DNA from: Candidatus Anstonellales archaeon | GTDB taxonomy: Archaea; Micrarchaeota; Micrarchaeia; Anstonellales; J096 | Assembly (NCBI GenBank): GCA_038890615.1 | Contig: JAWAFI010000001.1 | Span: forward strand, 465,536-529,535 | Direction of reading: 5' to 3' | DNA: 64,000 nt | Shown: one piece after another, positions 10,490 to 50,591 of the stretch | Layout of the letters: every line of letters begins with the position of its first letter | Position numbering within the stretch: position 1 is the first letter of the stretch | Made by a program: the position numbers and the translations under genes | Notes under the pieces: generated by a model | Database searches by the model: none | The model's input: the letters and a program-made list of their open reading frames with translations, nothing else | Told to the model about the DNA's origin: nothing

Positions 10490-11290
10490 CTAAATGGCAA
10501 GCAGGATTGCTTGGTATATCATGGCTGCAGCCATCCCTGGAATCAAGAGATAAGGGAGCGCAGGGGCGAATTCCCCCTTCTCAATCCTGCTGAACATAAC
10601 AACAATGCCTGACATGCAGCCTAATATGAAAATAAAGGAGTGGGGCATAGAAAGTTGGAGGAAAGAGCAGGCAATGGCAGTTGGCAAGGCTATATCGCCT
10701 GTCCCTAATGATATTGTAGATTCTTCACCCTTTATTTTCTCAGTGCTTGTTACCATCATAGACATCTCATGCTTTGCTATTGTCTGCGCCAGCTCTATCA
10801 TATGGCCTGTTTTCCTTACTGCTACATAGTCGTAGACAATAAGGGCTGCGCCAAGCCCTATGGCAAGCCAGTAGCTTATGCTTGAGCCGATAAGGGCGCC
10901 TATTCCTGCGCTAGCTAGCAGGGCTGTTGCATTTTTTAGCCTGAAGTCCCTTGCAAAGCTTACAGAGCTTGCCACTATCCCTGAGAAAAAGAGCGAAAAT
11001 AAGTAGTTAAGGCCCAAAGCGCTGAATAATGGGAAGAATGTTATGCTCATGCCTGCTGTGCTTGCCCCAATGTCAATAGCCCCATATATGAAAGAGAATT
11101 TCATCCTGTTTAAAATAATGAAGAAGAGAGTCCCAAACAGGAACGAGCCCCCTATTATCGCTGCCATTTCCCATTCATTGAATCCTTTTAAGGGATCTAT
11201 GTCTTCCGGAAGGGGCTTCAATGCAAAATAAAGGGTTATAAGGATGCCGAGCATTGCTGCAAGCGCATACTTAAGCAGCATTGAAAGCAT
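10490..11290 (-). CDS. Presenilin / signal-peptide-peptidase-like intramembrane aspartyl protease (peptidase A22 family)
   Basis: It is polytopic with YD (VYDYVAV), GxGD (LGTGDIALP) and PAL (APALPYL) motifs in the canonical order. Confidence 0.7.
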   Translation of the reverse strand: MLSMLLKYALAAMLGILITLYFALKPLPEDIDPLKGFNEWEMAAIIGGSFLFGTLFFIILNRMKFSFIYGAIDIGASTAGMSITFFPLFSALGLNYLFSLFFSGIVASSVSFARDFRLKNATALLASAGIGALIGSSISYWLAIGLGAALIVYDYVAVRKTGHMIELAQTIAKHEMSMMVTSTEKIKGEESTISLGTGDIALPTAIACSFLQLSMPHSFIFILGCMSGIVVMFSRIEKGEFAPALPYLLIPGMAAAMIYQAILLAI

Positions 11291-18522: not shown

Positions 18523-18597
18523 GCTCCTGTAGTCTAGCCCGGACAAGGATACTGGCCTCTCGAGCCAGAGACCCGGGTTCAAATCCCGGCAGGAGCA
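18523..18597 (+). tRNA. tRNA-Glu (anticodon CUC)
   Basis: Hand fold: acceptor GCTCCTG/CAGGAGC, anticodon stem CTGGC/GCCAG with loop CTCTCGA, and T-arm CCGGG-TTCAAAT-CCCGG with discriminator A. The architecture matches archaeal tRNA-Glu. It is 75 nt with no encoded CCA. Confidence 0.85.
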
Positions 18598-18599
18598 CT

Positions 18600-22888: not shown

Positions 22889-22961
22889 GGGCCCGTGGTC
22901 CAACGGCTATGACGTCACCCTTACACGGTGAAGATTCCCGGTTCGAATCCGGGCGGGCCCA
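22889..22961 (+). tRNA. tRNA-Val (anticodon UAC)
   Basis: Hand fold: acceptor GGGCCCG/CGGGCCC, anticodon stem TCACC/GGTGA with loop CTTACAC, and T-arm CCCGG-TTCGAAT-CCGGG with discriminator A. It is 73 nt. Confidence 0.85.
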
Positions 22962-28051: not shown

Positions 28052-29038
28052 CTATGCGCTTTGTTTATAAACATGCTTTTCCACAGTGCATTCAACGCAT
28101 ACCTTATTCTTGCTTGGGCTGTAGCTTTTCACTGGCCTCCACCTGCACTCTGCCTTTGCGCCGAGCTTTGCTATCCTGCCTTCCAGCATTTTGACCCTAT
28201 TGTTTTCTGTGCCTTTTTCCCAGAATGAATAAATAACCAGCTTGCCCTTTCTTTTTAGCATCTCTACCGCCTCCTCTATAAATTCCTCTGAATTTGCAGG
28301 AAGGGGCATAATAACATAACTGGCCCAGCCCTTCCATTCGTGCGCCTTTTCCCTGACATCCCCTTCAACTGCAACAGCATTGCATTTTGCCCTTTCAATC
28401 CCTTTGCGCATGCATTCCACTGCATCCTTGTTCAGCTCAATGCCTACTGCTTTTGCTTTCCTGTGCTTTGCAATCTCAATCACATAAGGCCCTGCTCCTG
28501 CGAACATAACCATAACGTTGCTACCTTTTCTTATTTTCTCAACAACCCTTTTTCTTTCTTCTGCCATCCTTGGCGAAAAATGGACTTTTGCAATGTCAAC
28601 ATAGATCCAGCAGCCATTCTCCTTGTGCCAGGTTGTTGTTCTCTTCTCGCCTGCAATGTGCTCAAGCTTCCTAACCCTATATTCCCCCTCAACAGCGCTT
28701 GCCTTCTTAAAGACACCCTTCACATTCTTATGGAACCTAAGTATGCCCTCAGCAACTTTTTTTGCGCTAACGCCTTTTGGCAACTCAACAACGCAGAGGT
28801 CGCCTATGATCTCATAGCGCACAGGAGCTCCTACTAGCTCCTTTACTGGGAGCCTCTTTTTTTTCTTCCTTCCATCCCTCTCAACATCCCCCTCTGCCCC
28901 TTTCACCAAAGGGAAATATACCCATTCAGAATCCCTTTCAACAAAGTAATCAGCATTTAGGATGCCCTTGCGCAAAAGCTCCCTCCTCACATTCTCTGCG
29001 TCCTTTGGCGCAGCTTTCCTGAAGCTTATTCTATCCAT
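28052..29038 (-). CDS. trm5: tRNA (guanine37-N1)-methyltransferase Trm5 (Met-10+ / TYW2 family)
   Basis: It has the SAM-binding VMVMFAGAGPYVIEIAK and NAV...D motifs, with the Trm5 length and domain order. Confidence 0.75.
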   Translation of the reverse strand: MDRISFRKAAPKDAENVRRELLRKGILNADYFVERDSEWVYFPLVKGAEGDVERDGRKKKKRLPVKELVGAPVRYEIIGDLCVVELPKGVSAKKVAEGILRFHKNVKGVFKKASAVEGEYRVRKLEHIAGEKRTTTWHKENGCWIYVDIAKVHFSPRMAEERKRVVEKIRKGSNVMVMFAGAGPYVIEIAKHRKAKAVGIELNKDAVECMRKGIERAKCNAVAVEGDVREKAHEWKGWASYVIMPLPANSEEFIEEAVEMLKRKGKLVIYSFWEKGTENNRVKMLEGRIAKLGAKAECRWRPVKSYSPSKNKVCVECTVEKHVYKQSA

Positions 29039-31653
29039 ATCTCTGGCTTCCCGGGTATTGCCTTGCCGCTGTCCTTCCCGAGCTTGACTTTGCAGCCGAA
29101 CTCCTTTTTCAGCAGAGGAATGGCGCTCTTTATCAGCTCTTCTTCCTCTTCTTTTGTTGCCCTTGTGGGGCTCCTTGCTATCCGTTGGGCGATTTTGGCA
29201 TCCTCAATCTTAACCTCCCCCATTGCCTTCATCCCCTTCTCAGCTGCAAGGTTGGCAAGCTGCCTTTTCCATCCCCCTGCAACTCCAAGCCTTATTAGCG
29301 CTGGCTTCTTCCCTGTTATCTCAATTACTTTCTGCACATCCTTTAAGAGCTCTTTTATTGCCTCTTCGTTTTCAATTGCCTTCTGGTCAACCTCTTCTGC
29401 ATTGGGCCAAGTTGCGGAGCAAACTGATGCCCCTTTCACAATACCTTTCTTGCGCAGGTTGGCCCATACAATCTCAGCAGTGAACGGCGCAAATGGGCTT
29501 ATGGCAACGCTCCATTTAGCCAGAAATTCTCCTAAGTTGGGCTTCTTCTTCCTCCTCTCATACCACCTCAGCTCGCTGTAAACCTCGTAGAAAAGCTTCT
29601 GGAGGGCATCCCTGTATTCAAAGGATTCCATGTTTTTCTCTGCCCCTGCAATAGCCCTGTTAAGCACGCTGTATATATACCTGTCAATGCTGTCCTTTTC
29701 TGAAACCCGCGCTTTTTTGCTTAGCTTTATGAAGTAAGAAAGCCTTTCCTTTATGCCTGCTGCATCAGGCCCGCTGAAGTTTGCGTCATCCTCAAGAGTT
29801 GCGCTGCCAACTGCAGCTATCCTTATGCTGTCAGCGCCGTATCCCTTTACAGCCTTCCTTAAAGGCAGTATGTTGCCTAAGCTCTTGCTCATCTTCTTGC
29901 CATCCATTAGCACAAAGCCATTGCTTACAATCTGCTTTGGCCAGTGCTCCTTCCCAAAGACTGCAACATGGTTGAATACAAAGAAAGGCAGGTGGTTCAT
30001 TAATAGGTCTGAGGCGCTGTGCCTTGAGTCAACAGGGTACCAATAAAGGAATTCCTTCCTCATCCCTTCCCACCCTGGCTTCCCTTCTCCCTTGCCTAGC
30101 ATTACATAGTCAAAAAGCTGGTCGTCCACTTCCTTAAGGTCAATATCTTTTATCAGATGGGCTATTGTGTAGTAAGCCATGTATATTGTTGAATCAGAAA
30201 GGGCGTCAATCATCTTCTTCCTGTCGAATATGAAGCGCGTTCCCAACCCGCTGCTCCTTGTTACTGGCTTTTCCCTAAGCCAATCTATTGCGTATTCCAT
30301 CCTTTTCCTTGCATTTTCAGGCACAACCCTCATCTCTGCAAAGCACTCCTTTGCTGCCTTTTTCCATTCAGGGTTGGCATAATCTATGAACCACTGGTCC
30401 TCAAATACCTTTACTATTGCCTTTTCCCCGCACCTGCATTGCACAGGAGAGGCAAGCACATACGCCTTGAGCGCCTTGCCTTCATTGAGAAGCTTATCCT
30501 TTACATAATCCCTTGCCTCCTCAACAGGCATACCTTCCATCCCTTTCACTAACATCTTTCCCTGCTTCAGCTCCTTCATATAAACCTCTTTTGTAAGTGC
30601 CTCAAGCCTTTCATCTGCGCTTGATGCTATCCCCTGCCTTCCCACTTCCTTTGCGCAGTCAATAGGGCTTTCTATTATCTTTATTGGCTCAATCCCAAGC
30701 CCTGCTTCCTTGAGCGCTGCATAGTCATATGGCGCATGGGCAGGCACGCTCATCACTGCTCCAGTGCCCCACTCAGGGTCTACAAAAGGCGCGCTGAAAG
30801 CCCTTACAATGTTGCCAAGAGGGCTCCTGAACTCCTGCTCTACAAGCTCCTTTCCGCTAACCTTCCCGACAACTTTAACCTCAAGCTGGCCCTCAAGGTT
30901 CTTCACTGCTTTCTCCGCAACTATATACTTCTTCCCATTGACCTCAACAACAGCGTAATCCTCTGCTTCCTTTACCCAGAGGTTTGTAACCCCGTAAATG
31001 GTTTCAGGCCTGTACGTTGATGCAAGCAAAGCCCCTTGCTTTGTTTCAAAGCTAATGAGCACAACCTCTTCCAGCTCTGGGTCAACATCCCCCTTTGTGT
31101 CATGTGCGCTTAGCACATTCCTGTCCTTTGGGCAGTAGGCAAGGGGGTATTTCCCTTTCTTAAGGTAGCCCTTCTCAGCAAGCTTCCTGAACTGCCATTC
31201 TATAAACCTGTTGAACCTCTTGTCAGATGTGTAGAACTTTCTCCTCCAGTCTATGCTGTATCCTATCTCATGCATTCCTTTCTCTATCTCCTTTGAGAAA
31301 TACTTGACAAGCTTCTTTGGGTCTGTAAGCTTGGGGAAAAGCGCTTCTTCAATCCCAAATATATCCTTGAATATCCTAAGAAGCTCATGGTCCTTTTCCT
31401 TAACCCTTTTTGCCATTGCCAATATTGGAGTGCCTGTTACATGGAAGCCCATAGGGAAAAGCACATTGTACCCCTTTGCCCTAAGATAGCGAGCATATAT
31501 GTCTGTTATGGTATAAGTCCTTCCATGCCCTATGTGCTGCGGTGAGTTTGGGTATGGAAATGCTGCAGTTATGAGCTTTTTTGGCCTGCTGTCTGGTATT
31601 GCCTCAAAAAGGCCCATTGATGCCCATGCGCGCATTACGCTTTTTTCATTCAT
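29026..31653 (-). CDS. leuS: Leucyl-tRNA synthetase
   Basis: It has HIGH (PHIGHGRTY) and KMSKS (KMSKSLGN) motifs, a class Ia editing domain, and the archaeal LeuRS pattern. It is 875 aa. Confidence 0.95.
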   Translation of the reverse strand: MNEKSVMRAWASMGLFEAIPDSRPKKLITAAFPYPNSPQHIGHGRTYTITDIYARYLRAKGYNVLFPMGFHVTGTPILAMAKRVKEKDHELLRIFKDIFGIEEALFPKLTDPKKLVKYFSKEIEKGMHEIGYSIDWRRKFYTSDKRFNRFIEWQFRKLAEKGYLKKGKYPLAYCPKDRNVLSAHDTKGDVDPELEEVVLISFETKQGALLASTYRPETIYGVTNLWVKEAEDYAVVEVNGKKYIVAEKAVKNLEGQLEVKVVGKVSGKELVEQEFRSPLGNIVRAFSAPFVDPEWGTGAVMSVPAHAPYDYAALKEAGLGIEPIKIIESPIDCAKEVGRQGIASSADERLEALTKEVYMKELKQGKMLVKGMEGMPVEEARDYVKDKLLNEGKALKAYVLASPVQCRCGEKAIVKVFEDQWFIDYANPEWKKAAKECFAEMRVVPENARKRMEYAIDWLREKPVTRSSGLGTRFIFDRKKMIDALSDSTIYMAYYTIAHLIKDIDLKEVDDQLFDYVMLGKGEGKPGWEGMRKEFLYWYPVDSRHSASDLLMNHLPFFVFNHVAVFGKEHWPKQIVSNGFVLMDGKKMSKSLGNILPLRKAVKGYGADSIRIAAVGSATLEDDANFSGPDAAGIKERLSYFIKLSKKARVSEKDSIDRYIYSVLNRAIAGAEKNMESFEYRDALQKLFYEVYSELRWYERRKKKPNLGEFLAKWSVAISPFAPFTAEIVWANLRKKGIVKGASVCSATWPNAEEVDQKAIENEEAIKELLKDVQKVIEITGKKPALIRLGVAGGWKRQLANLAAEKGMKAMGEVKIEDAKIAQRIARSPTRATKEEEEELIKSAIPLLKKEFGCKVKLGKDSGKAIPGKPEIWIE

Positions 31654-31705
31654 GGAAATTCCATAAGGGCTAACTTTAAATACTTTGCCTGTGCTTTCTC
31701 TATTG
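31654..31705. promoter_or_regulatory. Short divergent promoter region between leuS and the six-gene membrane operon (TATA-like ctttaaatac at about 31672-31681)
   Basis: The A/T box lies about 26 nt upstream of the ATG at 31706, consistent with a leaderless transcript. The listed ORF start at 31685 is a TTG inside this box. Confidence 0.35.
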
Positions 31706-32941
31706 ATGCCTTTGCTTATGCAGGCGCTTGCGCCTCCGATTAACGAAGTTACAATTGCAGCGTTCCTGCTATCTTTCTCAATAGTGGTCGCTTACTACCT
31801 TCTAGACAAGGCATGGGAGGCTTTAAGAGGGGGAGCAGGAGCTACCTCTCCATTTACTATACCTGCCAAGAGGGAGATGAATGAATTCTTCGTAACGGTG
31901 CTCATATTCGCATTCTTCAGCATCTTGGTCTTCCTGATGGATACTGTTGTTTCTGCTTTTGTATGCGGCTCAACCACCGGCTGCAATGTGATAGAGATTG
32001 CGCATTTCTATTTGATAAGGCTTCAGGCGCTCCTTGTTAGCCAGTTCACCATAACATACCTTACTGAAACTGTTTTCGGCTTCTTTGGCTACTTAGGAGT
32101 AGGCGGCAAGCCAGACATCCTTTCATTTGTGCCATTTGGCTACAACTTAGCCCCTTTTGCTCCTCTTGGGCTCCCAACAAGCCTCCTGCTTAGGATAATA
32201 GATTTAATAGAAATGGAGCTTGGGGCAACGGTTACTAAGGTTATACTGCTTTACATAATATCCTTTGCAGTTCCTTACCACTTGCTTCCTTTGGGGTTCT
32301 TCATGCGTGCAATACCCTTTACAAGGAAAACAGGGAGCATGGTAATAGCTCTTTGCATCTCTGCGTATTTCGTATACCCTTTCAGCGTAATATACGGAAC
32401 TTCGCTGGTTGTTGACTATATGAATGCAGAATCTCCATCAACGCTTTACCAAATATACGATGCTACTGCAAGCATGATGGGCAGCTTTCTCAATCTTTTC
32501 TCAGGATGGACTTATAATACAGAGTTCTTCACTTCGCTAAACACCAACATAAAAGCATGGGAAGGGGCGCTTCAGGATTATGGAAATGCAATAACTAACC
32601 CTGCTGACCCTGTTGGGAGCAGGGAAGGGGGGCTTGCAACAAAATACCAGCTTGAGTACGAAGACAAGCTTGGCGCTGCAGCAAGCGACCCTGCTTACTC
32701 AATAGGGATAGGGGTTTTAGGCCTTTTCCTTTCAATCCTCGCCAGGCCACTCTTAGTGGTTGAGCTTGTAACAGGGTTCTACAGGATGGTGGTGGTGCTG
32801 GGTATATACACCGCTCTCCAGTTTACAGGTGTGGTTGCGAGCACCTTTTTCGAGATTGTGCTTACAATAACTGCTTTCAGGGCAATCTCAGAGCTTCTCA
32901 GCGGAGAGATGGCGCTTTTTGGGATGGGGAGGCTGACTTGA
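31706..32941 (+). CDS. Paralogous polytopic membrane protein, member 1 of 6 (uncharacterised family)
   Basis: It is multi-TM. It has the shared loop motif LLPLGFFMRAIPFTRKTGSMVIALCISAYFVYPF and the C-terminal tail ...GMGRLT. Its stop is fused to the next start (TGAATG). Confidence 0.6.
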   Translation: MPLLMQALAPPINEVTIAAFLLSFSIVVAYYLLDKAWEALRGGAGATSPFTIPAKREMNEFFVTVLIFAFFSILVFLMDTVVSAFVCGSTTGCNVIEIAHFYLIRLQALLVSQFTITYLTETVFGFFGYLGVGGKPDILSFVPFGYNLAPFAPLGLPTSLLLRIIDLIEMELGATVTKVILLYIISFAVPYHLLPLGFFMRAIPFTRKTGSMVIALCISAYFVYPFSVIYGTSLVVDYMNAESPSTLYQIYDATASMMGSFLNLFSGWTYNTEFFTSLNTNIKAWEGALQDYGNAITNPADPVGSREGGLATKYQLEYEDKLGAAASDPAYSIGIGVLGLFLSILARPLLVVELVTGFYRMVVVLGIYTALQFTGVVASTFFEIVLTITAFRAISELLSGEMALFGMGRLT

Positions 32942-33925
32942 ATGTTCGAGGTTTTCATCGCAGCAGCAGCGCTCCTGATGGTTGCATACATAGCAGTGCT
33001 CTACATGGCTGGCTCCTTTATGCAGAAGCCAGAATGGCACGCAATGGCAAAGGACCAGCTAAGGGAGCTTTTCCTAGCCTGCCTAATAACTATGTCAGCA
33101 GGCGCCATGATATCAATATGCAACTACCTTGGGATAATATGGCTCCAAAGCTACTTCCCTAGCTACTCCATAGTGCAGAATGACCTTGGCAAGACAACCT
33201 CTGCCCAGCTTGAGCAAATAATATTCAAATCCCTCATACCTATGATAGCGCGCATAGGTAGCATAGACATGCTCACTACAACCGCATCAAGCTACTATGC
33301 AGCAGCAGGCCCGGGAAAGTGGAGGTTTGACTTCAAGGTTTTCAATGCAGCAGGGGACAGGTTCCTGCAGATAATAGGTATACTTGAGTTCACTCTTTCA
33401 ATAACGCTTGCAAGCCTTTTCATACAATCAGCAGTTCTTGACATGGCTTACCAGGTTTCAATGGAGATAATGCTCCCTTTGGGTGCTGTGCTGTTGTTCT
33501 TCCCAGTGCTAAGGAAGTCAGGGAAATTTATAGTAGCATTAGCAATAGCGTATGGCTTCTTTGCGCCATTCATATACAGCATGACGCTTGCATCCATAGG
33601 GGATTTTTTCGCAATGAAGTCAGCTTCGAGCCCTGCAATCAATATACCATTCATAGGAGCATATGACTTTTGGGACATCTACTCAACCCCATTTATAAGG
33701 ATAAGTGAGCCCTTCCTGATTTTTCTCCCAACAGGCCATGTTTTTGTGCTTGTATACTCAAACCTGTTCGCAGAAGCCGGAAAAGTGCTTTTCATAACAG
33801 TGCTTTGCCCTGCCTTGGTTTCAATAATAACAGTTTCAACAATAAGGCCGCTTGCTGATTTCATAGAGGCGCAGTCGTTTTTGATAGACACAAGGATGAT
33901 ATCTGGGCCAAGCATAGGTGGTTGA
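32942..33925 (+). CDS. Paralogous polytopic membrane protein, member 2 of 6
   Basis: It has the motif MLPLGAVLLFFPVLRKSGKFIVALAIAYGFFAPF and the tail ...SGPSIGG. It is translationally coupled on both sides. Confidence 0.6.
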   Translation: MFEVFIAAAALLMVAYIAVLYMAGSFMQKPEWHAMAKDQLRELFLACLITMSAGAMISICNYLGIIWLQSYFPSYSIVQNDLGKTTSAQLEQIIFKSLIPMIARIGSIDMLTTTASSYYAAAGPGKWRFDFKVFNAAGDRFLQIIGILEFTLSITLASLFIQSAVLDMAYQVSMEIMLPLGAVLLFFPVLRKSGKFIVALAIAYGFFAPFIYSMTLASIGDFFAMKSASSPAINIPFIGAYDFWDIYSTPFIRISEPFLIFLPTGHVFVLVYSNLFAEAGKVLFITVLCPALVSIITVSTIRPLADFIEAQSFLIDTRMISGPSIGG

Positions 33926-35185
33926 ATGCCAGCGCAGCCGTACATTGAATTTGTTTTGCAGGCATACCAGAACTACCTGCCTTTAGCCCCTCCTTTGATC
34001 CTCCTGTCGCTTGGGCTCATAGCGCTTACCCAAGCAGTAGGGAGGTTCTTGAACATGAACCAGCTCATTGTGTGGGGCAAGCTTGAGCTTTTTGAGCTTT
34101 TCTTCTCTGCTTTTATACTCCTCATATTCCCATTTGCCCTTGGCTCCATGAATGAGATAGCAGCTACGGTAATTACTTCTCTTCCATATGGGCCAGACAT
34201 ATGCCCAAATGCCCAGCAGGCAACAATACCCTGCCACATAGCTTATGCAAAGCAGTTCCTGAATTCAATGTTCATAGAGCTCGACTATGTAATTTTCAGG
34301 CAGCTTGCTTGGTATTCTGTTATAAGCTTGCTCACAAACACAGAGATTTCCTTGGAGGTTGGGATGATATCAAAGCCATGGGCGCCTTTCATGATTTTCC
34401 ATGCCAAAGAGCTAATAATAAGGGACACAGTGCAGCATATGTTTACATTCATGCTGGCTTTAAAGGTCATTGAGAACACCTTTGCTTTCATATCCCTTTT
34501 CTTTTTCCCGCTAATGCTCATAGGTGGGGTTTTGCTCAGGATACTAAAGTATACAAGGAGGCTTGGTGGCCTGCTAATAGCAATAGCGCTGGTGTCGCAT
34601 TACATAACCCCAATACCTTTCATAGTGGGCGGCATGCTTTACAACCAGTACAGGATAGACCAAGGCTTGCCGTACAGTGACTTAAAACCAGTGCTCTACA
34701 AAGCCAAAACAACCTCTTCCACAGGGGTGCCGGCAATACTTGACTTAAAAGACAATGACATTTATGATAGCTGGAAGAAAAGCTACGAGTCGCAATCGCA
34801 GGGCCAGGCGATTGATTACACAACAAGCAATATGCAATACCAGCTTAAAGATAATTTGGTCATAGAGCCATACGTTGACCCACATGATGCTTCTTCAGTG
34901 TCTTCAGGAATAGCATCATTTCTACTTGAAGCAATTTCATTCACAAAATACCTGAGCTTGTACGTTTTCACAGCAGGCTTCGGGCAGGGCGAATCTATAG
35001 TAGACTTCATATATGGGATTGACTTAGTTAAAAAAGGAGGCGCCCTTGATGTAAGCGGTACAGTGCTGGCGTATGTTTTCTTCTTTACATTCATTTCACT
35101 ACTCTCATCAATAGCTGCAGTAAGGAGCCTTTCAGAGACATTTGGCGGGGATTCAGAGATAGCAGGGCTTACGAGGCTGATATGA
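33926..35185 (+). CDS. Paralogous polytopic membrane protein, member 3 of 6
   Basis: It has the motif FFPLMLIGGVLLRILKYTRRLGGLLIAIALVSHYITPIPF and the tail ...GLTRLI. Its stop overlaps the next start (ATGA). Confidence 0.6.
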   Translation: MPAQPYIEFVLQAYQNYLPLAPPLILLSLGLIALTQAVGRFLNMNQLIVWGKLELFELFFSAFILLIFPFALGSMNEIAATVITSLPYGPDICPNAQQATIPCHIAYAKQFLNSMFIELDYVIFRQLAWYSVISLLTNTEISLEVGMISKPWAPFMIFHAKELIIRDTVQHMFTFMLALKVIENTFAFISLFFFPLMLIGGVLLRILKYTRRLGGLLIAIALVSHYITPIPFIVGGMLYNQYRIDQGLPYSDLKPVLYKAKTTSSTGVPAILDLKDNDIYDSWKKSYESQSQGQAIDYTTSNMQYQLKDNLVIEPYVDPHDASSVSSGIASFLLEAISFTKYLSLYVFTAGFGQGESIVDFIYGIDLVKKGGALDVSGTVLAYVFFFTFISLLSSIAAVRSLSETFGGDSEIAGLTRLI

Positions 35186-36369
35186 TGAGGCTAATGCACC
35201 TAATCCTCCTTCTTCTCTTGCCTGCCCTCTCAGCACAGCAGACAAACAACATACAAGAAATAACATCAAGCACCATTGATGAGAAGGCATGGAGCCAAAC
35301 AATAGAGAGCCACTTGCTTCTCCAGATAATAACAAACAACTGCCAGGCAGGGCCGAGCCTTGACATGCACAGCCAATTCTTGACGCTTTCAGCAGCTGTT
35401 TTGATCACTATGCTTTCGCTGCTAATATTCCTATACTTGCTCTCTTACATAACCGATTCTGTTACAATCAGGAGCGTTGTGCAGTACGAGTTTTACTCTG
35501 TGTTCATGACAACCTTCCTCCTTTTCGCCCTTCTTGAAGTCCTTTACCTTACAATCAACCCGGTTTATGAGAAGCTTGGCATACAGGAGAAGGCATTCAG
35601 CTACTCCAACAAGATAGTTGTGAGGCTTTTCACTACGCTTGGCGCTTTCAGCGGCACCTCTTTAGTGTTAAGCGCAATAGAATCCTTAAGGATAAGCATA
35701 AGCTTCAGGATTGTGCCTTTCTCTTTCTCAGCATCTTCATTCGTGAAGCCCATGACTGACTCTGTTGGCTTCATATCCCAGCTAACCAGCTTGGCAGTTA
35801 CAGAATGGCTTGTCAAGGCAGCGCTGCTGTGCCTGATGTTCAATTACTCTTTCCCTCTGCTCATACCCATTGGGCTCTTCCTTAGGGCCATACCAATATT
35901 CAGGGGGGCAGGCAACTCAATAATAGCAGCATCACTTGGGTTCTTCTTCATATTCCCGCTTCTTCTTGCAGTAAACGATGACATAGATGCCAAGATGTCG
36001 CTTATACTGCGCGAGAGGGAGACAATGGACAGGGCAGTGGCAGTAGTAAAGGATGTCGCAGGGGATTCTGCATTCTCAGTAAACAACGCAACAGGGGAGG
36101 AGCTTTCTGGCTGGCTGGAGAAACTCTACAACCTGCTTTTCAGGGCTATATTTTTCCCTTCGCAGCAAACTCCTATCGACCAAGGGGGCATATGGCTCTG
36201 GGAAAAGGTGTTCTACCCTCTTTTCATACTGCGCTTTGTGTATTACTTCTTTGTTCTCAGCGCCATATTCCCGTTTATAAACATTTCAGTGCTAATAGCT
36301 GCAATAAAGGAGATAGGCCAGTGGCTTGATGCTGATGTAAAGCTTGATGTTTTCATGAGGTTGATATAG
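35182..36369 (+). CDS. Paralogous polytopic membrane protein, member 4 of 6 (has cleavable-looking signal peptide)
   Basis: It has the N-terminus MMRLMHLILLLLLPALSAQQ, the motif LLIPIGLFLRAIPIFRGAGNSIIAASLGFFFIFPLL, and the tail ...VFMRLI. Confidence 0.6.
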   Translation: MMRLMHLILLLLLPALSAQQTNNIQEITSSTIDEKAWSQTIESHLLLQIITNNCQAGPSLDMHSQFLTLSAAVLITMLSLLIFLYLLSYITDSVTIRSVVQYEFYSVFMTTFLLFALLEVLYLTINPVYEKLGIQEKAFSYSNKIVVRLFTTLGAFSGTSLVLSAIESLRISISFRIVPFSFSASSFVKPMTDSVGFISQLTSLAVTEWLVKAALLCLMFNYSFPLLIPIGLFLRAIPIFRGAGNSIIAASLGFFFIFPLLLAVNDDIDAKMSLILRERETMDRAVAVVKDVAGDSAFSVNNATGEELSGWLEKLYNLLFRAIFFPSQQTPIDQGGIWLWEKVFYPLFILRFVYYFFVLSAIFPFINISVLIAAIKEIGQWLDADVKLDVFMRLI

Positions 36370-37593
36370 ATGGCATCGCTTGCAGAATTACAAGGCACTT
36401 TGCTTGCCCAGCTCATGCCTGCCTATGCAGCCCTCTACAATTACGAGCCGCTTGCTCAGTCGCAGGTATGCGGCGACCCTGCTGGCTTTGTGAATTCCCT
36501 TATGCCCCCTGTTGGGGAGGTCCTGCTCCTTTCAGTGGCTATAATTGTTTTCCTATACCTGCTTTCAAGGATCCTGGCAAACCCAATGCTGGAATCATAC
36601 GTGAAGCTTGAGCTCCAAGAGATTCTCATAACCTGCCTTATATTCATATTCTTTGGGCTGATGATACCTATCCCATGCGTTCCTGCATCTTTCCTTAGCG
36701 TGCCCCCGGCTTATTCATCGAACACAATGATTCTTGATGGAGCTGTCTACCTTTCAGAGGTAGGGTCAAACTACCTGCTGCTCGGCTACTTCTTCTCAAC
36801 GCTTATGTATTACATAATATCCTTTTACTCTGTAATAATAAACGCTGCGCCCCTTGTTGGGACAGTAGTTGCGCCATTGCAGGGGCTTTCAGCAGTAATA
36901 TCCCCTGTGTTCTCAACAGTTGCCACTACCTTAGGCACTGGCGTAGTAATAAACTTCGCCTACCTGCTATTCTATGATTTCATGACCTACTCTTTCTTGA
37001 AGGCAATGCTACCTATAGGGCTCTTGCTGAGGTGCTTCACGATCACAAAGAAGGCAGGGAGCGCAATAATAGCGCTCTGCCTTTCATTCTATGTGCTGTT
37101 CCCATTCCTGCTTACTTTGGAGCATTCCATTGTAATGAACTCAGGCTATGGAAATTCATTAAACATGATACTTAGGAACGTCTGGTCAACTACTAAATAT
37201 GTAAGTGATGCAATAATACCCGGCCCATCTAAGCTTGAGCCAGGAGAGGAGCTTAAAGAATGGATAGAAAAAGGCGCCAATCCAATAATCTATGGCCTTG
37301 GGACCGCTCCTTTCCTTGCGACATTTGTTTTCCAGTTTGTTGCTGCCCTTGGCTTTATGCCAATAACAAAGCTGATAGCCCCTGCAGTGCTTGGCCAATG
37401 GATGGCATCAATAGTTGCAATACCTGCGCACATGATTGCTGCGGAGATGCTTATAACCACTTCAGTGTACGTTTTCATCAACTCAGTGATATTCCCTGCA
37501 CTAAACACGCTCGTGCTCGTTGGCGCTGCGGCATCCTTTGCCCAGCTGCTAGGAGTTCAGCTTGATGTTTCAAACCTTACGAGGCTGATATGA
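36370..37593 (+). CDS. Paralogous polytopic membrane protein, member 5 of 6
   Basis: It has the motif MLPIGLLLRCFTITKKAGSAIIALCLSFYVLFPFL and the tail ...SNLTRLI. It overlaps the next start by ATGA. Confidence 0.6.
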   Translation: MASLAELQGTLLAQLMPAYAALYNYEPLAQSQVCGDPAGFVNSLMPPVGEVLLLSVAIIVFLYLLSRILANPMLESYVKLELQEILITCLIFIFFGLMIPIPCVPASFLSVPPAYSSNTMILDGAVYLSEVGSNYLLLGYFFSTLMYYIISFYSVIINAAPLVGTVVAPLQGLSAVISPVFSTVATTLGTGVVINFAYLLFYDFMTYSFLKAMLPIGLLLRCFTITKKAGSAIIALCLSFYVLFPFLLTLEHSIVMNSGYGNSLNMILRNVWSTTKYVSDAIIPGPSKLEPGEELKEWIEKGANPIIYGLGTAPFLATFVFQFVAALGFMPITKLIAPAVLGQWMASIVAIPAHMIAAEMLITTSVYVFINSVIFPALNTLVLVGAAASFAQLLGVQLDVSNLTRLI

Positions 37594-38573
37594 TGCTGAT
37601 GATCTGGCTCAACATTTCGATTGCAATAATAGCGACGATTTTCATAGCCTCCCTCTTAGTATATATGATAGGGAAGGGGTTTATGATCCCCCAGCTGGAG
37701 TCCATTGCAAAGAAGGAAATGATATATGTGGTCTCCACTGTGCTCCTGCTCATATTCATAGAGTTGCTAGTGGTAGAGCTTGAAGGAATGCTAGTGGCAA
37801 TAATGGAGCCATACATAACACAGCTTCTTGCTGTATACGGCCAGCCAGCCCCTTCAGGCCAGCTTACGCTCATAGACATGAGCATAATGTTTATGGGAGG
37901 CCCATACAACTGCCTTGTGACTAAAATACTTCCGCCAGTGGCAGCGCTTGCATCCGACTTAAGCACAATATTCAAGGCAAAGGTTGAGGTTCCAATGCCC
38001 AACCCAAGCGGCTTTGGCGGGGTGGGGAACATCCTTGACCTCCTAAATTACTTCATAGGTGCATCTGTTGTTTTTGTTCTTGCTTATTTCTTCCTTACAA
38101 ACCTATTGCTGCTTTTCAAGCACCTTTCACTTCCATTGTTCATCCCGCTTGGCATAATATTAAGGGCATTTTCACCTACAAGGGGAGCAGGTGCATACAT
38201 ACTTGCCTTTTCAATAGTAGGTTACTTTGTAATGCCTCTTACGTACTCCATAATTTCCCTTATATTGGGGATTTCTTTTGGCGCAGCAGGGATTTGCCAG
38301 CCAATAGACATACCACCCTACCTCCTTATGACGCTGAATTCAGGCAGCCCGCAGACAGAAGCAGAGCAGATGGCCATAAGGACTCTCCAGTCATCAGGGG
38401 TGATGAGCAATGTGGCAGATTCAATAGATAAGATAATAATGGGGCTCTTCATGTACCTCTGCTCAATACCTTTCATAACCCTTACCGTAGGTCTTACAAC
38501 AGTCCTTTTCCTTTCTGCTGTGTTTGGGATAAACCTGCCTGAGGTAGGAAGGGGGCTAGTGAAGCTTATTTGA
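37590..38573 (+). CDS. Paralogous polytopic membrane protein, member 6 of 6
   Basis: It has the motif FIPLGIILRAFSPTRGAGAYILAFSIVGYFVMPL and the tail ...RGLVKLI. It ends 59 nt before the tuf start. Confidence 0.6.
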   Translation: MMLMIWLNISIAIIATIFIASLLVYMIGKGFMIPQLESIAKKEMIYVVSTVLLLIFIELLVVELEGMLVAIMEPYITQLLAVYGQPAPSGQLTLIDMSIMFMGGPYNCLVTKILPPVAALASDLSTIFKAKVEVPMPNPSGFGGVGNILDLLNYFIGASVVFVLAYFFLTNLLLLFKHLSLPLFIPLGIILRAFSPTRGAGAYILAFSIVGYFVMPLTYSIISLILGISFGAAGICQPIDIPPYLLMTLNSGSPQTEAEQMAIRTLQSSGVMSNVADSIDKIIMGLFMYLCSIPFITLTVGLTTVLFLSAVFGINLPEVGRGLVKLI

Positions 38574-38632
38574 GCCCAGCGAAACATTTAAAAATATTGG
38601 CGACTATGCTTTTCCAGCTAAAGGTGTTTTCT
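38574..38632 (+). promoter_or_regulatory. tuf promoter and RBS (TATA-like catttaaaaatatt at 38584-38597; SD aggtg at 38622-38626)
   Basis: An A/T box and SD lie immediately upstream of the MAKKEH ATG at 38633. Confidence 0.4.
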
Positions 38633-39904
38633 ATGGCGAAAAAGGAGCACTTAAATGTAGTGTTCATTGGACATGTTGATGCAGGCAAGTCAACAACAGT
38701 GGGAAGGATGCTGCTTGACACAGGTAAGATAAGCCAGCAGGTTATAGACAAGCTGAGGGAAGAGGCAGAGAGGCTCGGAAAAGCAACATTTGAATTTGCT
38801 TTCTTGATGGACACCCTTAAGGAGGAGAGGGAAAGGGGTGTTACCATTGATGTTTCTCACCAAGAGTTTGAGACAGACAAGTTTTACATAACCATTATAG
38901 ATGCCCCTGGCCACAGGGACTTCGTAAAGAATATGATAACAGGCACTAGCCAAGCAGATGCTGCAGTGCTAGTGGTTTCTGCAAAAGACGGGGTGCAGCC
39001 CCAGACAAAGGAGCACGCCTTCTTGGCGAAAGTTCTTGGGGTAAACCAGCTCATAGTGCTTATGAACAAGATGGACGCAGTTGATTACAAAGAAGATGTG
39101 TACAAGAAGGTTAAGGCAGAGGTAGAGGCGCTCCTAAAGTCTATAGGGTATGACCCAAGCAAGGTGCCTTTTGTTGCAGGCTCCTCTTTTGCAGGGGAGA
39201 ACATAGGAAAGCCAGGCACCAAGATGCCATGGTACAAGGGGCCAACGCTTTATCAGGCGCTTGATTCACTTTCAGTTCCTGTTGCACCGGTTGACAAGCC
39301 CCTTAGGATACCAGTGGAGGATGTCCTTACCATTACTGGCCATGGAACTGTAATTGTAGGAAGGGTTGAGACAGGCAGGCTCAAGCCAGGCGACAACATA
39401 GTAATAAACCCAGGAGGGATTAAAACAGACGTAAAGAGAATAGAGATGCACCACCAGGAGCTAAAGGAAGCAGTTGCAGGAGACAATATAGGGTTTAATG
39501 TGAAAGGGGTTGATAAGGGTGCAATAAAAAGAGGGTTTGTGGTAGGAGCTCCAGGGGCAGAGCCTACAGTTGCAGAGGAATTCACAGCCCAGATAGTTGT
39601 GCTTAACCACCCAACTGCCATAAGCGTTGGCTACACCCCTGTATTCCATGTCAGGACAGCACAGTTCCCTGCAACAATAGTTGAGATACTGGAAAAGAAG
39701 GATCCTAAGTCAGGCGAAGTGCTGCAGAAGAACCCAGACCACATAAAAACAGGGGATGCAGCTGTAATAAGGGTGAAGCCTCTTAAGAGCGTAGTTGTTG
39801 AAAAGTTCCAGCAGTTCCCTGGGCTAGGAAGGTTTGCCATAAGGGATATGGGCCAGACTGTTGCAGCAGGCATAGTTTTGGATGTAAAGCCAAAGCAACA
39901 GTGA
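38633..39904 (+). CDS. tuf: Translation elongation factor 1-alpha (EF-1alpha / aEF-Tu)
   Basis: It has MAKKEHLNVVFIGHVDAGKST, DAPGHRDF and NKMD GTPase motifs. The true start is the internal ATG of the listed ORF 38570. Confidence 0.95.
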   Translation: MAKKEHLNVVFIGHVDAGKSTTVGRMLLDTGKISQQVIDKLREEAERLGKATFEFAFLMDTLKEERERGVTIDVSHQEFETDKFYITIIDAPGHRDFVKNMITGTSQADAAVLVVSAKDGVQPQTKEHAFLAKVLGVNQLIVLMNKMDAVDYKEDVYKKVKAEVEALLKSIGYDPSKVPFVAGSSFAGENIGKPGTKMPWYKGPTLYQALDSLSVPVAPVDKPLRIPVEDVLTITGHGTVIVGRVETGRLKPGDNIVINPGGIKTDVKRIEMHHQELKEAVAGDNIGFNVKGVDKGAIKRGFVVGAPGAEPTVAEEFTAQIVVLNHPTAISVGYTPVFHVRTAQFPATIVEILEKKDPKSGEVLQKNPDHIKTGDAAVIRVKPLKSVVVEKFQQFPGLGRFAIRDMGQTVAAGIVLDVKPKQQ

Positions 39905-42026: not shown

Positions 42027-42477
42027 CTTTTTTGCTCATCCTCTTTTTTGCGTATTCCTCAAATTCTCTCTCAACCCTGTATTCGTGTGCTTGGAGCACC
42101 ATGTCCAAAAGGTTCATGTCCCTTACAAACTTGGCAAGCTTTGTCTTGCCTTCCCTATATTCTTTCATCAGCTTAACCCCATCCTTGCCAATCAGGGGCT
42201 CAATCTCCTTTTCTGCCTTCCTTTCAAGCGAGTCCTTCTCCTTGCTTTTTGCGTCAAAAGGTGTTATGTCGCCTGTGATTGCCTCTGCCAAGTCATGCAG
42301 AAGGGCCATTTCCACTGCCTTCTCTCTGTTTGCCTTAAACTCCTTTGCAAATGCATAGCAGAGGACTGCAGTGCTGAAAGAGTGGTCTGCAATGCTCTCA
42401 ACCTCTGCCTTTATGTGCCTGGTCCACCCTCTTCTCTCTGTTTTCTTAAGGGCTAAGATTATTTTCCAGATGCTCAT
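41986..42477 (-). CDS. YfbR-like HD-domain 5'-(deoxy)nucleotidase (start moved to MSIWKII, overlapping the rbcL stop by ATGA)
   Basis: RRGWTRHIKAEVESIADHSFSTAVLCYAFA...ALLHDLAEAITGDITPFD matches the H...HD...D metal site of the YfbR/HDDC2 family. Confidence 0.75.
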   Translation of the reverse strand: MSIWKIILALKKTERRGWTRHIKAEVESIADHSFSTAVLCYAFAKEFKANREKAVEMALLHDLAEAITGDITPFDAKSKEKDSLERKAEKEIEPLIGKDGVKLMKEYREGKTKLAKFVRDMNLLDMVLQAHEYRVEREFEEYAKKRMSKKAKALLAEFLGKNK

Positions 42478-43739
42478 ATTTTCTTGTGCCAAAGGTAGTA
42501 CACCTGCTTCCCTCCCCATTTTTCGAGTGCAACTGCAAGCTCCTTGCATTCCTTTGCCTTTTCCTTAAGTGTTATGCCTTCTGCCACTGCATCTACTGCT
42601 GCCCTCATTGCTTTAGCCCCTGCTTCTGTGCCTTGCGGATGGCCATGCACCCCTCCCCCTCCTTGGAAAACAAAATCAGTTGAGTTGAAGGCATTCACAA
42701 CATCATAAACCTTGGTTGGATATAGGCCTCCTGAGGCAACAGGGAAAACTGGCTTTATGCCATTCTTCCTTTCAACCAAAGAGGAGTATTGTTTCCTTAC
42801 TTCTTCTTTATTAGCATGCATCTTTCCTGCACCATGGTCTATATGGAGCTGGTCAACCCCCATTAGCCTGAATATCTTCGCCCAAACATGCATCTTTACC
42901 ATATTGCCCCCTCCTTCTGTGAATACACCATGCATAGCCCTGTGAGCATGGATTGGCAGTATGTTTTGGTCCCTTACCATCTGCACTGCAGAGAAGCCGC
43001 AGGTGAAGAGGTCAAGCATAATCATGTTGCCTCCATGCTCCTTAACGAAATCTGCCCTTTTCAGCATCACATCTGCATTTGCTGTTATGTTAGGGGAGTA
43101 AAGCTTTTTCTCCCCTGTTTCTTCCTCTGCCCTGTCAAGCGCCTCCAATGTCTTCACAACCCTTTCCTCAAACTTGCAGAACTTCTGGTCTGTAAGGTTC
43201 TCATCATCCTTTACGAAGTCAATGCCTCCTCTCCATGCCATCTCTGCCACTTCTGCGAATTTCTTTGCGCTAAGCCCAAGCTTTGGCTTTATTATAGTGC
43301 CAACATGGGGCCTCCTGCTCTTCGTTGTCCCAAGATACCTTCTAATCCCTTCCATCCCTTCCTTTGGGCCAGGGAACTTTTTTTCGTACTTTTGGGGCAA
43401 ATAGATGTCATCAAGCACAAGCCAATCTGCCTCTTTAACCCCAAAGACATTGCCAGAAATAGATGATAGCAGCTGAGGGATGCTTCTTTTCTCAAAGAGC
43501 CCAATAGGATATGCTATAGCCATGCTCACTACGCCCTTTTCCTTCCTCAGCTTGAAGACCTTTGCTCCAAACTTTTCTACAATCTGCCTTGAAGATGTCC
43601 ATACCTCTGTCCATGTCCCCACTGAGCTTTCTGCTGCTATAATCTCTGCTATCTTTTCAGCAGGCTGGGAGCTCTTAGCCCTGAAGAAAACCACCAGATG
43701 CTCATCATCCGGCTCAAAACCAAGCTTTATGTAGCCCAT
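42474..43739 (-). CDS. rbcL: Ribulose-1,5-bisphosphate carboxylase large subunit, form III (archaeal type)
   Basis: It has GGIDFVKDDENL (carbamylated Lys in KDDE), IHAHRAMHG and GGGVHGHP loop 6. It is 421 aa, and no small subunit is present. Confidence 0.95.
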   Translation of the reverse strand: MGYIKLGFEPDDEHLVVFFRAKSSQPAEKIAEIIAAESSVGTWTEVWTSSRQIVEKFGAKVFKLRKEKGVVSMAIAYPIGLFEKRSIPQLLSSISGNVFGVKEADWLVLDDIYLPQKYEKKFPGPKEGMEGIRRYLGTTKSRRPHVGTIIKPKLGLSAKKFAEVAEMAWRGGIDFVKDDENLTDQKFCKFEERVVKTLEALDRAEEETGEKKLYSPNITANADVMLKRADFVKEHGGNMIMLDLFTCGFSAVQMVRDQNILPIHAHRAMHGVFTEGGGNMVKMHVWAKIFRLMGVDQLHIDHGAGKMHANKEEVRKQYSSLVERKNGIKPVFPVASGGLYPTKVYDVVNAFNSTDFVFQGGGGVHGHPQGTEAGAKAMRAAVDAVAEGITLKEKAKECKELAVALEKWGGKQVYYLWHKKI

Positions 43740-49982: not shown

Positions 49983-50591
49983 ATGCTTGCAGCGCTTTTT
50001 TCAGGAGGCAAGGACAGCACGCTTGCAGCGATATGGGCAACAATGCAGGGCTTTGATGTCACGCTAATTACTATAAAGCCAAAGCCTTACTCAATGCTTT
50101 TCCACCATCCAAACCTCCATCTAACTCCTATCCAGGCGAAACTCATGGGGCTTAAGCACAAGTTTGTTGCTTCCAAAGGGAAGGATGAAGAAGCCCTTAA
50201 GAAAGCACTGAAAGGCTTTGAAGGGGTTGTTTCAGGAGCAATAGAAAGCGAGTACCAGCGCAGGATAATAGAGGAAATTGCAGAAGGGCTTGGAATTCCT
50301 TCCTATGCTCCTCTCTGGCACAAGGGCGTCCTTGAAGACGTGAGTAGCCACATGGAGGCTTATGTTTCTGCAGTAAGCGCAGATGGCTTAGGCAAGGAAT
50401 GCCTAGCAAAAAAGTTTCCAGTGAATAGCCTTCCCAAAGGGGTCCACCCTGCGTTTGAAGGAGGGGAAGGGGAAACCTTAGTATGCTATGCGCCCTTGTT
50501 TTCAAAGCGCATAGTGGTTGGCAAGTGGAGGATAGAGTGGGATGGCATAAGGGGGGTTGCCTCTGCTGAAAAGTGGCATCTTCTGCCTTAG
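49983..50591 (+). CDS. dph6: Diphthine-ammonia ligase (Dph6-type PP-loop ATP pyrophosphatase, MJ0570 family)
   Basis: It has MLAALFSGGKDST PP-loop, E..Y and GEGGE motifs. It is 202 aa. Confidence 0.75.
   Translation: MLAALFSGGKDSTLAAIWATMQGFDVTLITIKPKPYSMLFHHPNLHLTPIQAKLMGLKHKFVASKGKDEEALKKALKGFEGVVSGAIESEYQRRIIEEIAEGLGIPSYAPLWHKGVLEDVSSHMEAYVSAVSADGLGKECLAKKFPVNSLPKGVHPAFEGGEGETLVCYAPLFSKRIVVGKWRIEWDGIRGVASAEKWHLLP

Follow-up and report, generated by a model that had tools for sequence, protein, structure and literature searches.

The six-gene array and its fixed order

We analysed a 64,000-nucleotide stretch of the Micrarchaeota genome Candidatus Anstonellales archaeon (assembly GCA_038890615.1, contig JAWAFI010000001.1, positions 465,536 to 529,535 of the forward strand), referred to below as the window. 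Within it, six open reading frames (ORFs), P1 to P6, follow one another head-to-tail on the + strand, with stop and start codons that either abut or overlap by 4 nt. A reading of the letters alone (the original prediction) had described their products as six paralogs with a shared Arg-rich loop and similar C-terminal tails, and as subunits of one assembly. That reading lacked the wider setting described here: the phylum-wide distribution of the family, its linkage to a VirB4-type ATPase in related genomes, and a weak resemblance to the VirB6 fold. The genes, scored with a hidden Markov model (HMM) of the family, and the promoter-like elements beside them are as follows.

P1: 31685-32941, + strand; array position 1; 418 aa from TTG 31685; family HMM E=5e-44
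P2: 32942-33925, + strand; position 2; 327 aa; start abuts the P1 stop; family HMM E=1e-24
P3: 33926-35185, + strand; position 3; 419 aa; ends GGDxEIAGLTRLI; family HMM E=2e-59
P4: 35182-36369, + strand; position 4; 395 aa; 4-nt overlap with P3; family HMM E=2e-35
P5: 36370-37593, + strand; position 5; 407 aa; family HMM E=1e-37
P6: 37590-38573, + strand; position 6; 327 aa; 4-nt overlap with P5
TATA-box-like element CTTTAAATA: 31675-31683, + strand; in the 52-nt gap (31654-31705) between the leucyl-tRNA synthetase (LeuRS) gene and P1, 23 nt upstream of ATG 31706
Second TATA-like element TTTAAAAATA: 38587-38597, + strand; precedes EF-1alpha

The array lies between a divergent LeuRS gene upstream (29026-31653, - strand) and EF-1alpha/ribosomal protein S10 downstream (from 38633, + strand). 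For P1, the ATG at 31706, which gives a protein of 411 aa, is more likely the true start than the TTG at 31685, and it is the start used in the NCBI record (QW035_02860, hypothetical protein, 411 aa). Public records cover two of the six proteins, QW035_02860 and QW035_02870, and both bear the name 'hypothetical protein'. As read from the sequence, CTTTAAATA is likely the promoter of a six-gene operon. With TATA-like elements before both P1 and EF-1alpha, and with such tight junctions between them, the six genes look like a separate transcription unit. The mechanically called EF-1alpha ORF (38570-39904) begins at TTG 38570 and overlaps P6; its real start is almost certainly ATG 38633 (MAKKEHLNVVFIGHVDAGKST).

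When GTDB was scanned with one genome per species, 233 species representatives proved to carry a relative of P3, and the best 80 of these 233 loci, all from Micrarchaeota-type metagenome-assembled genomes, were retrieved. When all ORFs were scored with the family HMM, exactly six tandem, same-strand members were present in 69 of 81 loci; in the remaining 12 the array was cut by contig ends, or split by frameshifts or gene-calling artefacts. The 69 complete arrays showed no expansion, loss or shuffling, and the P3 ortholog was always third. Alignment by array position resolved six distinct orthogroups, each with its own conserved tail, among which that of P3 is the best conserved. We conclude, with very high confidence, that P1 to P6 are a real, conserved functional unit. 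Subunits of one hetero-oligomer with a defined arrangement would be expected to show just these features: constant number and order, translational coupling, and signatures specific to each position. The fixed array thus strengthens the earlier proposal that the six are subunits of one assembly, the assembly itself being predicted from these features.

Both in the window and at each of the 80 loci retrieved with P3, the six genes form an isolated block in a housekeeping neighbourhood. Clustering of the flanking genes placed a divergent aminoacyl-tRNA synthetase upstream of stand-alone arrays (LeuRS in 24 loci, aspartyl-tRNA synthetase in 25) and PIN-like and RNA-ligase-like genes downstream. 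The divergent pairing with LeuRS recurs: this gene lay no more than 10 kb from the array in 34 of 82 sources, in most of them as the immediate upstream neighbour, and a Trm5-like methyltransferase gene frequently followed behind it. Carriage as mobile-element cargo was not seen: no relative was found on IMG/VR contigs, in 72,556 plasmids or in PHROGs. The conserved housekeeping flanks and the absence from viral contigs and plasmids argue for vertical chromosomal inheritance.

An exhaustive profile search over 1.84 billion representative proteins returned 2,670 representative clusters at E<=1e-3, of which 1,469 remained at E<=1e-10. The exhaustive search was needed because word-indexed searches with family alignments were flooded by hydrophobic words and gave just 4 and 13 matches. 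Nearly all named sources are hypothetical proteins of Micrarchaeota, within the DPANN archaea. The exceptions, by submitter label, are one cluster from Marsarchaeota and four loci from Iainarchaeum; array contigs so labelled are Candidatus Marsarchaeota of the TACK lineage (L083, GCA_023485525.1) and Candidatus (I)ainarchaeum (L022, L064, L067 and L076). Either these labels or bins are wrong, or the family extends slightly past Micrarchaeota.

The six window proteins had no meaningful match in Pfam, NCBIfam or PHROGs. At E<=1, NCBIfam yielded a single chance-level match, between P4 and NF004695 ('hypothetical protein', E=0.068); no Ced component was matched. A profile search of Protein Data Bank (PDB) sequences gave Alternative Complex III as its sole match, at chance level (E=0.14), and this candidate was rejected. 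In the searchable literature we found no description of the family, nor of a type IV secretion system (T4SS)-like or Ced-like system in Micrarchaeota. The archaeal MoxR/vWA 'secretion' neighbourhood (Makarova et al. 2015) proved unrelated.

A shared loop, position-specific tails and membrane topology

The original prediction had quoted one motif string per protein, and each of the six occurs exactly in its translation.

P1 loop motif LLPLGFFMRAIPFTRKTGSMVIALCISAYFVYPF: aa 200-233, nt 32282-32383, + strand; turn between membrane helices 3 and 4
P2 loop motif MLPLGAVLLFFPVLRKSGKFIVALAIAYGFFAPF: aa 177-210, nt 33470-33571, + strand; lacks the first Arg
P3 loop motif FFPLMLIGGVLLRILKYTRRLGGLLIAIALVSHYITPIPF: aa 193-232, nt 34502-34621, + strand; modelled as helix 154-206, turn 207-210, helix 211-227
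P4 loop motif LIPIGLFLRAIPIFRGAGNSIIAASLGFFFIFPL: aa 227-260, nt 35860-35961, + strand; exact string in translation
P5 loop motif MLPIGLLLRCFTITKKAGSAIIALCLSFYVLFPF: aa 213-246, nt 37006-37107, + strand; exact string in translation
P6 loop motif FIPLGIILRAFSPTRGAGAYILAFSIVGYFVMPL: aa 184-217, nt 38139-38240, + strand; modelled with a helix break at residue 194, within the motif

The formula offered for these strings, P-x-G-x-x-L-R-x-x-P-x-x-R-x-x-G, calls for a slight correction: conservation does not extend to either of its prolines, and the first Arg is absent from P2. Across the family, the core reads G-x-x-[LF]-R-x-[FI]-x-[FPL]-T-R-[KR]-x-G(G), then ...A...P. In P3 numbering, G201, G214 and P229 are invariant, and R205, R211 and A219 are at least 90% conserved, across 140 sequences. 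Conservation of the loop (...G-x-x-L-R-x-x-x-F-T-R-K-x-G-G...) is also striking in the best 150 family clusters. A loose regular expression for the loop matched five of the six proteins, and none of 2,000 residue shuffles reached at least five of six.

In all six proteins the motif forms the turn that joins the third and fourth hydrophobic helices, as judged by hydropathy and by AlphaFold2 (AF2) models of P3 and P6, on both of which it maps to the turn between the third and fourth membrane helices. The motif occurrences are thus positionally homologous: they neither fall in different transmembrane segments nor reflect composition only.

The C-terminal tails are likewise shared.

P1 tail LSGEMALFGMGRLT: 32897-32938, + strand; C-terminus GMGRLT
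P2 tail LIDTRMISGPSIGG: 33881-33922, + strand; element DTRMI, then an 8-residue extension as in position-2 orthologs
P3 tail FGGDSEIAGLTRLI: 35141-35182, + strand; C-terminus GLTRLI
P4 tail LDADVKLDVFMRLI: 36325-36366, + strand; C-terminus VFMRLI
P5 tail LGVQLDVSNLTRLI: 37549-37590, + strand; C-terminus NLTRLI
P6 tail INLPEVGRGLVKLI: 38529-38570, + strand; C-terminus GLVKLI

The five endings reported earlier as hydrophobic-R/K-L-I/T are true C-termini, and P2 holds the same element internally, so that all six proteins carry it. The orthogroup tails are GGE-x-E-I-x-G-L-T-K-x-V at position 1, T-K-F-I plus a few residues at position 2, GGD-I-E-I-A-G-L-T-R/H-L-I at position 3, D-V-N-x-x-S-F-x-K-x-I at position 4, GEE-V-D-I-S-S-L-T-R-M-I at position 5, and F-G-G-N-I-P-E-I-G-R-G-L-V-K-L-I at position 6. 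An ending of the form [RKH][LIVMFA][LIVMFTA] was present in 340 of 345 proteins at positions 1, 3, 4, 5 and 6 (69 genomes), compared with 16 of 636 other long ORFs (2.5%). The best 150 family clusters again show a strikingly conserved extreme C-terminus, ...G-D-T-x-L-A-G-L-S-R/K-L/F-V/I. The suggestion that the tail is a sorting signal was not supported for signals of the known archaeal kind (PGF-CTERM/archaeosortase): the conserved tail is the protein end itself, after the last membrane helix, with no terminal helix and basic stub behind it. A role in docking appears plausible from the sequences, because each array position keeps its own strongly conserved tail signature.

The six proteins are true full-length paralogs of one family. 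BLASTP gave E-values of 4e-13 to 2e-2 in 14 of the 15 pairs, P3-P4 reaching only 0.65. The aligned segment spanned the motif in 13 pairs; P3 and P4 aligned at the C-terminal tail only, and the best P2-P5 segment was N-terminal. Profile-profile comparison of the six orthogroup alignments with hhalign gave, for all pairs and over the full length, probabilities of 99.7-100% and E-values of 1e-25 to 1e-41, which bears out the six-paralog claim. Against the family HMM, the window proteins scored between E=1e-24 and 2e-59.

Both AF2 models were of good overall score (P3: mean predicted local distance difference test 82.2, predicted template modelling score 0.76; P6: 86.3 and 0.81) and have the same helix layout. 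A hairpin of two long N-terminal helices is followed by a third, non-membrane helix, then by a very long helix that ends at the motif turn and a helix running back outward. After the motif helices comes a variable insert, long and poorly modelled in P3 and short in P6. The models close with the last membrane helix and a short terminal helix formed by the conserved tail (residues 413-418 in P3, 316-326 in P6). Hydropathy gives five core membrane helices, with a longer hydrophobic C-terminal part in P1 and P5. Models and hydropathy together describe polytopic membrane proteins with at least five helices and a large extracytoplasmic region, as in VirB6/TrbL. The N-terminus of P4 is signal-peptide-like and is accompanied by an additional outer segment; several relatives likewise have a signal peptide and an N-terminal extension.

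Charge, cysteines and sequons were counted over 69 orthologs per array position. A net charge of +2 to +3 was found for the 10-residue motif loop, in which acidic residues are virtually lacking at array positions 3 and 6; at position 2, where the first Arg is missing, it is near-neutral. Cysteines and N-x-S/T sites are located in the two long loops, which have a negative net charge. By the positive-inside rule, these distributions place the motif loop and tail in the cytoplasm, so that the cytoplasmic basic loop of the original prediction is likely correct. We infer that the N-terminus lies outside and the C-terminus inside. The cytoplasmic face would then comprise the motif loop, the tail (...G-G-D/E-x-E-I-x-G-L-x-R/K-L-I) and the short W-A-K-x-E turn that links helices 1 and 2, and the best-conserved parts of the family would be intracellular. 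Helices 2, 3 and 4 appear to extend outward and, with one extra helix, to form an extracellular helical bundle.

Two further features concern the outer parts. The first outer region of position-3 orthologs carries a Cys...Pro-Cys-His signature (P3 C93, C103 and H104; 34199-34237), in which C93 and H104 are invariant and C103 is at least 90% conserved among 22 sequences; these residues could form a disulfide or metal site in the extracellular bundle. One family member (P0102, 662 aa) has N-terminal Ig-like and SprB repeats (residues 26-151) ahead of the family domain, which suggests that some subunits display adhesin-like modules at the cell surface.

An ATPase-linked cluster in related genomes

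A second setting of the array was found through members of a distant family branch and later through an ATPase gene itself. In at least ten distinct genomes (L001, L083, L085, L086, L088-L091, L100 and L101), the six paralogs belong to a constant, long cluster. Upstream to downstream, and as far as each contig extends, it encodes a protein of 123-129 aa with a signal peptide and two membrane helices, a ~630-aa polytopic protein, a ~243-aa membrane protein, the six paralogs, a 276/274-aa paralog pair, a 501-aa ATPase, and then proteins of 98, ~120 (zinc ribbon and membrane helices), ~242 (coiled coil), ~50 and ~780 aa. The cluster ends in synteny with topoisomerase VI-B, a PNO1-like KH protein, eIF2-gamma, S6e and CDC48. 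The contig of L001 ends within the array and provides the upstream part only; in the other nine named above, whose downstream flank is present, the ATPase gene lies in the same operon (9/9). Seven of these nine were retrieved through the ATPase itself and two through family members. A split arrangement was sought in nine ATPase- or family-centred loci, all of which were contiguous.

The ATPase matches the Pfam families DUF87 (HerA-central; 1e-14), AAA_10 (9e-14) and P-loop_TraG (5e-10). Its best NCBIfam models are CedD (1.8e-20; 73 bits, cut-off 600), VirB4 CD1110 (2.5e-19) and CedB (2e-17; 63 bits, cut-off 700); VirB4 and TraC models were also matched, and all top models score far under their cut-offs. 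It further matches HerA and VirB4 chains in the PDB, and VirB4/TraC/DUF87 genes on 529 plasmids, of which 408 are conjugative. By sequence, it belongs to the CedB/VirB4 superfamily and is not an equivalog of any of these. Identity among its more than 120 clusters is 69% or higher, whereas the six membrane proteins reach only ~25% between orthologs. Between stand-alone and ATPase-linked arrays, positional orthology is clear for position 5 only, and in part for position 3; the other positions are too divergent.

Tentatively, the small upstream protein is a VirB2-like pilin: the 123-aa protein of L084 matched PF04956 (TrbC/VirB2) with E=1.5e-5 and 25.6 bits (cut-off 27.9), over model positions 9-98 of 98. 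Homology of this protein to the six-paralog family was considered and rejected; an iterative pilin-seeded search pulled the family in, with seed E-values of 0.004-0.006 and hhalign probabilities below 2%, and we attribute this to profile drift. Such a link would have echoed a published similarity between VirB2 and VirB6. The accessory membrane proteins (~630, ~243, 276/274, ~120 and ~780 aa) were likewise rejected as family members (hhalign <=8.5%).

Several neighbours within the cluster merit separate description. The 98-99-aa protein after the ATPase (L088 11516-11815, following the ATPase at 9989-11506; pair present in L082-L089) matches the ATPase profile with E ~1e-19 and seems to be a free-standing copy of an ATPase domain, probably its C-terminal helical part. 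The two ~275-aa genes between the six paralogs and the ATPase (L088 8309-9139 and 9141-9965; pair present in L082-L101) are mutual paralogs without a family match, each composed of a membrane hairpin of two helices at the N-terminus and a soluble domain; they are candidates for VirB3/VirB8-like adaptors. In one genome (L084 1694-4087), the pilin-like gene is closely preceded by genes for a DUF2079 membrane protein and a MoxR-type AAA ATPase.

The topoisomerase VI-B/PNO1 synteny block was not found in the 64-kb window. The window does contain an 878-aa ORF (14708-17344, + strand) for a candidate S-layer protein, with a match of its N-terminal part to PF05124, the S-layer-like outer domain (E=2e-7), and ORFs of 753, 523 and 440 aa (59858-62119, 50557-52128 and 9116-10438, all + strand) that have no Pfam match at E<=1e-3 and are dissimilar to the accessory proteins of the ATPase-linked cluster. 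A RuBisCO large-subunit homolog (42474-43739, - strand) has both Pfam domains (E=2e-78 and 6e-32) and is presumably of the form III/nucleotide-salvage type common in DPANN. Other genes encode MCM, phosphoenolpyruvate synthase/pyruvate phosphate dikinase, a P-type ATPase, geranylgeranyl reductase, glutamate dehydrogenase and a rhomboid protease, together with tRNA-Glu (18523-18598) and tRNA-Val (22889-22961).

A possible VirB6-like platform and its alternatives

We compared the array and cluster with known machines. Conjugation-derived machines have a minimal set comprising a pilin, a VirB4-type ATPase and polytopic membrane proteins, and the archaeal Ced/Ted DNA importers comprise a pilin (CedA1/TedC), a VirB6-like channel (CedA/TedA) and a VirB4-like ATPase (CedB/TedB) (PMC9905601). 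Like them, the Micrarchaeota system would be archaeal, chromosomal and a domesticated T4SS derivative, and its ATPase scores best against CedD, VirB4 and CedB. It differs in having six paralogs in place of a single CedA/TedA gene and about ten more conserved genes, no Ced model reaches its cut-off, and DPANN are not mentioned in that account (PMC9905601).

The likeness to VirB6/TrbL (TrwI of R388, PDB 7o3v chain F) lies in a polytopic membrane protein with long helices projecting from the membrane, encoded in related Micrarchaeota alongside a VirB4-type ATPase and a small VirB2-like protein in a single operon. In contrast, there is no sequence or profile similarity, one VirB6 gene stands against six distinct paralogs, the Arg-loop and C-terminal R/K-L-I tail could not be linked to VirB6, and the Micrarchaeota system is chromosomal and phylum-wide rather than plasmid-borne. 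A Foldseek search of the PDB with the models gave no match at E<0.1. In the fold comparison list, the Aeropyrum CedA1 pilin ranked 9 and DotA of the Dot/Icm T4SS ranked 14 (246 residues aligned), so that the resemblance to the VirB6 fold is suggestive but weak. The best Foldseek matches were the Tweety homologs TTYH1-3, with E=0.1-0.3 and TM-scores below 0.2, which are not significant. They share the gross architecture of five membrane helices with helix extensions that form an outer bundle, and TTYH proteins have the N-terminus outside and the C-terminus inside; being eukaryotic and of unrelated context, they offer an architectural analogy only. Two independently obtained lines, the hint from the fold and the operon context, agree in pointing toward a VirB6-like function. 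We do not class the family as VirB6; that it works like VirB6 is, in our view, the best functional analogy.

Two bacterial systems offer further comparisons. Rickettsia has five divergent VirB6 paralogs (RvhB6a-e), and its T4SS genes are scattered in islets (PMC2653234). It is a precedent for multiplication of this component in a host-dependent organism. Like the proposed Micrarchaeota machine, the Rickettsia T4SS is vertically inherited in an organism with a reduced genome, and its VirB6-like part is multiplied into paralogs conserved only in a short core; the scattered islets parallel the split arrangement in the window. The Rickettsia proteins differ in that they have a recognisable TrbL/VirB6 domain and 674-1154 aa, are bacterial and diderm, and number five. 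Patescibacteria of the candidate phyla radiation (CPR) have a near-universal, chromosomal, VirB4-centred T4SS with a highly divergent VirB6, and virB6 was reported to be essential for epibiotic growth in one strain (PMC12102498). This too is a machine of ultra-small episymbionts, and the Micrarchaeota cluster would be its archaeal lifestyle counterpart; unlike the latter, it is bacterial, its components are recognisable with MPF-FATA/VirB6 profiles, and no six-fold paralogy has been described.

We propose that the six, as ancient paralogs, form a hetero-oligomeric, VirB6-like platform of a Ced/T4SS-like machine, and we give this mechanism, taken as a whole, an even chance of being correct. P1 to P6 would assemble as one obligate hetero-oligomer with a fixed subunit order, most simply a hexamer with one copy of each. 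Their cytoplasmic Arg-loops and position-specific tails would serve inter-subunit contacts, or the docking of a cytoplasmic partner, or both; the most likely partner would be the VirB4/HerA-type ATPase, a hexamer, whose gene shares an operon with the array in many other Micrarchaeota. HerA/VirB4 ATPases are hexamers, which makes a 6:6 match with the six subunits attractive. The outer helical bundles would form a stalk or channel. The machine would be chromosomal, vertically inherited and conjugation-like (T4SS/Ced-like), and would move DNA or other macromolecules between the symbiont and its host or partner. The genome of the window would carry its ATPase module elsewhere.

A more detailed version is considerably more speculative, and we think it improbable. 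In it, the six subunits would form a pseudo-six-fold heterohexameric translocon in which each Arg-loop and tail set grips one protomer of the VirB4/HerA-type ATPase and the outer bundles build a stalk or tube through the pseudo-periplasm, giving a symbiont-side conduit for the uptake of DNA or macromolecules from the host. The docking platform observed by cryo-tomography might possibly include such a translocon.

Several observations weigh against the proposed platform. No ATPase, pilin or other accessory gene occurs within +-10 kb of the 80 P3-retrieved arrays or in the 64-kb window; the link between array and ATPase is therefore indirect for the genome of the window, and this is the weakest step of the argument. 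The pilin call comes from one sub-threshold Pfam match, and the L001 ortholog has no TrbC match. PF04610 (TrbL/VirB6) gave no match at E<=1 in 22 family members (the six window proteins, ten diverse ones and six from one ATPase-linked array), whereas the positive control, TrwI of R388, scored 4.9e-50. Comparison by hhalign with a TrwI-type profile, a shallow one of eight sequences from a single clade taken from plasmid records, gave at most 1.9% for the family or any orthogroup, and the HMM search of PDB sequences returned no VirB6. The solved VirB6 (TrwI in the R388 structure) is, moreover, reportedly a pentamer and not a hexamer.

Three other explanations were weighed. That the similarity of the six proteins is only compositional, a product of hydrophobic helices and a basic turn with no homology of the motif, is an idea to which their strong hydrophobicity lends itself, given the flooding of word-based searches by hydrophobic matches and the ease with which the pilin-seeded search drifted into the family. 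It is already refuted, and its chance of being right is negligible: orthogroup pairs reach 99.7-100% in hhalign, compared with less than 9% for unrelated membrane proteins of related loci, the Gly, Pro, Arg and Ala positions of the loop are conserved as given above, the motif occupies the same structural place in two models, and the shuffles never reproduced it. The paralogs might instead act separately, each as a homo-oligomeric transporter or receptor with its own substrate, the array being simply a duplicated gene family. Tandem paralog arrays of transporters are common, and the outer loops diverge greatly among the six; yet copy number should vary if the paralogs were independent, and here six copies, their order and their position signatures are fixed phylum-wide, without change in the 69 complete arrays. 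Since the genes are also translationally coupled and match no transporter family or fold, we regard separate functions as very unlikely.

A more serious competitor, though still on the unlikely side in our judgement, is an autonomous envelope complex that works without a VirB4-type ATPase: a passive channel or nutrient pore, a scaffold of the S-layer or pseudo-periplasm, or a docking platform for host nanotubes, with the operon linkage in Micrarchaeales-type genomes being secondary. The self-contained operon, its housekeeping neighbourhood and the lack of a nearby ATPase in the window and 80 other genomes all fit this explanation, and the large, variable outer parts and the Ig/SprB repeats of one member suggest surface functions. 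The micrarchaeon ARM-1, moreover, has an envelope platform that receives host nanotubes, seen by cryo-tomography as a 21-nm barrel-shaped structure in the symbiont envelope whose proteins are unidentified (bioRxiv 10.1101/2024.05.20.594898). However, the most conserved parts of the six proteins (loop, tail and helix 1-2 turn) are predicted to be cytoplasmic, which points to a conserved intracellular partner; the ATPase is in the operon of all nine arrays with a recovered downstream flank and is highly conserved across its clusters; and six subunits of ~40 kDa would be unlikely to build a 21-nm barrel alone.

How DPANN cells are supplied with what they cannot make is an open question; tubes and platforms shared with hosts have been seen by cryo-tomography, with their proteins unidentified. 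The six-subunit module is a concrete candidate, strictly conserved phylum-wide, unannotated, and with no structural match strong enough to name its fold. If its link to the ATPase holds, a domesticated conjugation-like machine is present in Micrarchaeota, and the VirB6-like core of this machine has been multiplied six-fold; Rickettsia, with its five VirB6 paralogs, and CPR, with their near-universal T4SS, would offer parallels. If the translocon version were true, the module would correspond, on the DPANN side, to the T4SS on which Patescibacteria depend for epibiotic growth. Should the VirB6 analogy fail, the six-subunit complex would be a new kind of archaeal membrane assembly. The array is a natural test case for a homo-oligomeric platform evolving into a hetero-oligomer of fixed order.

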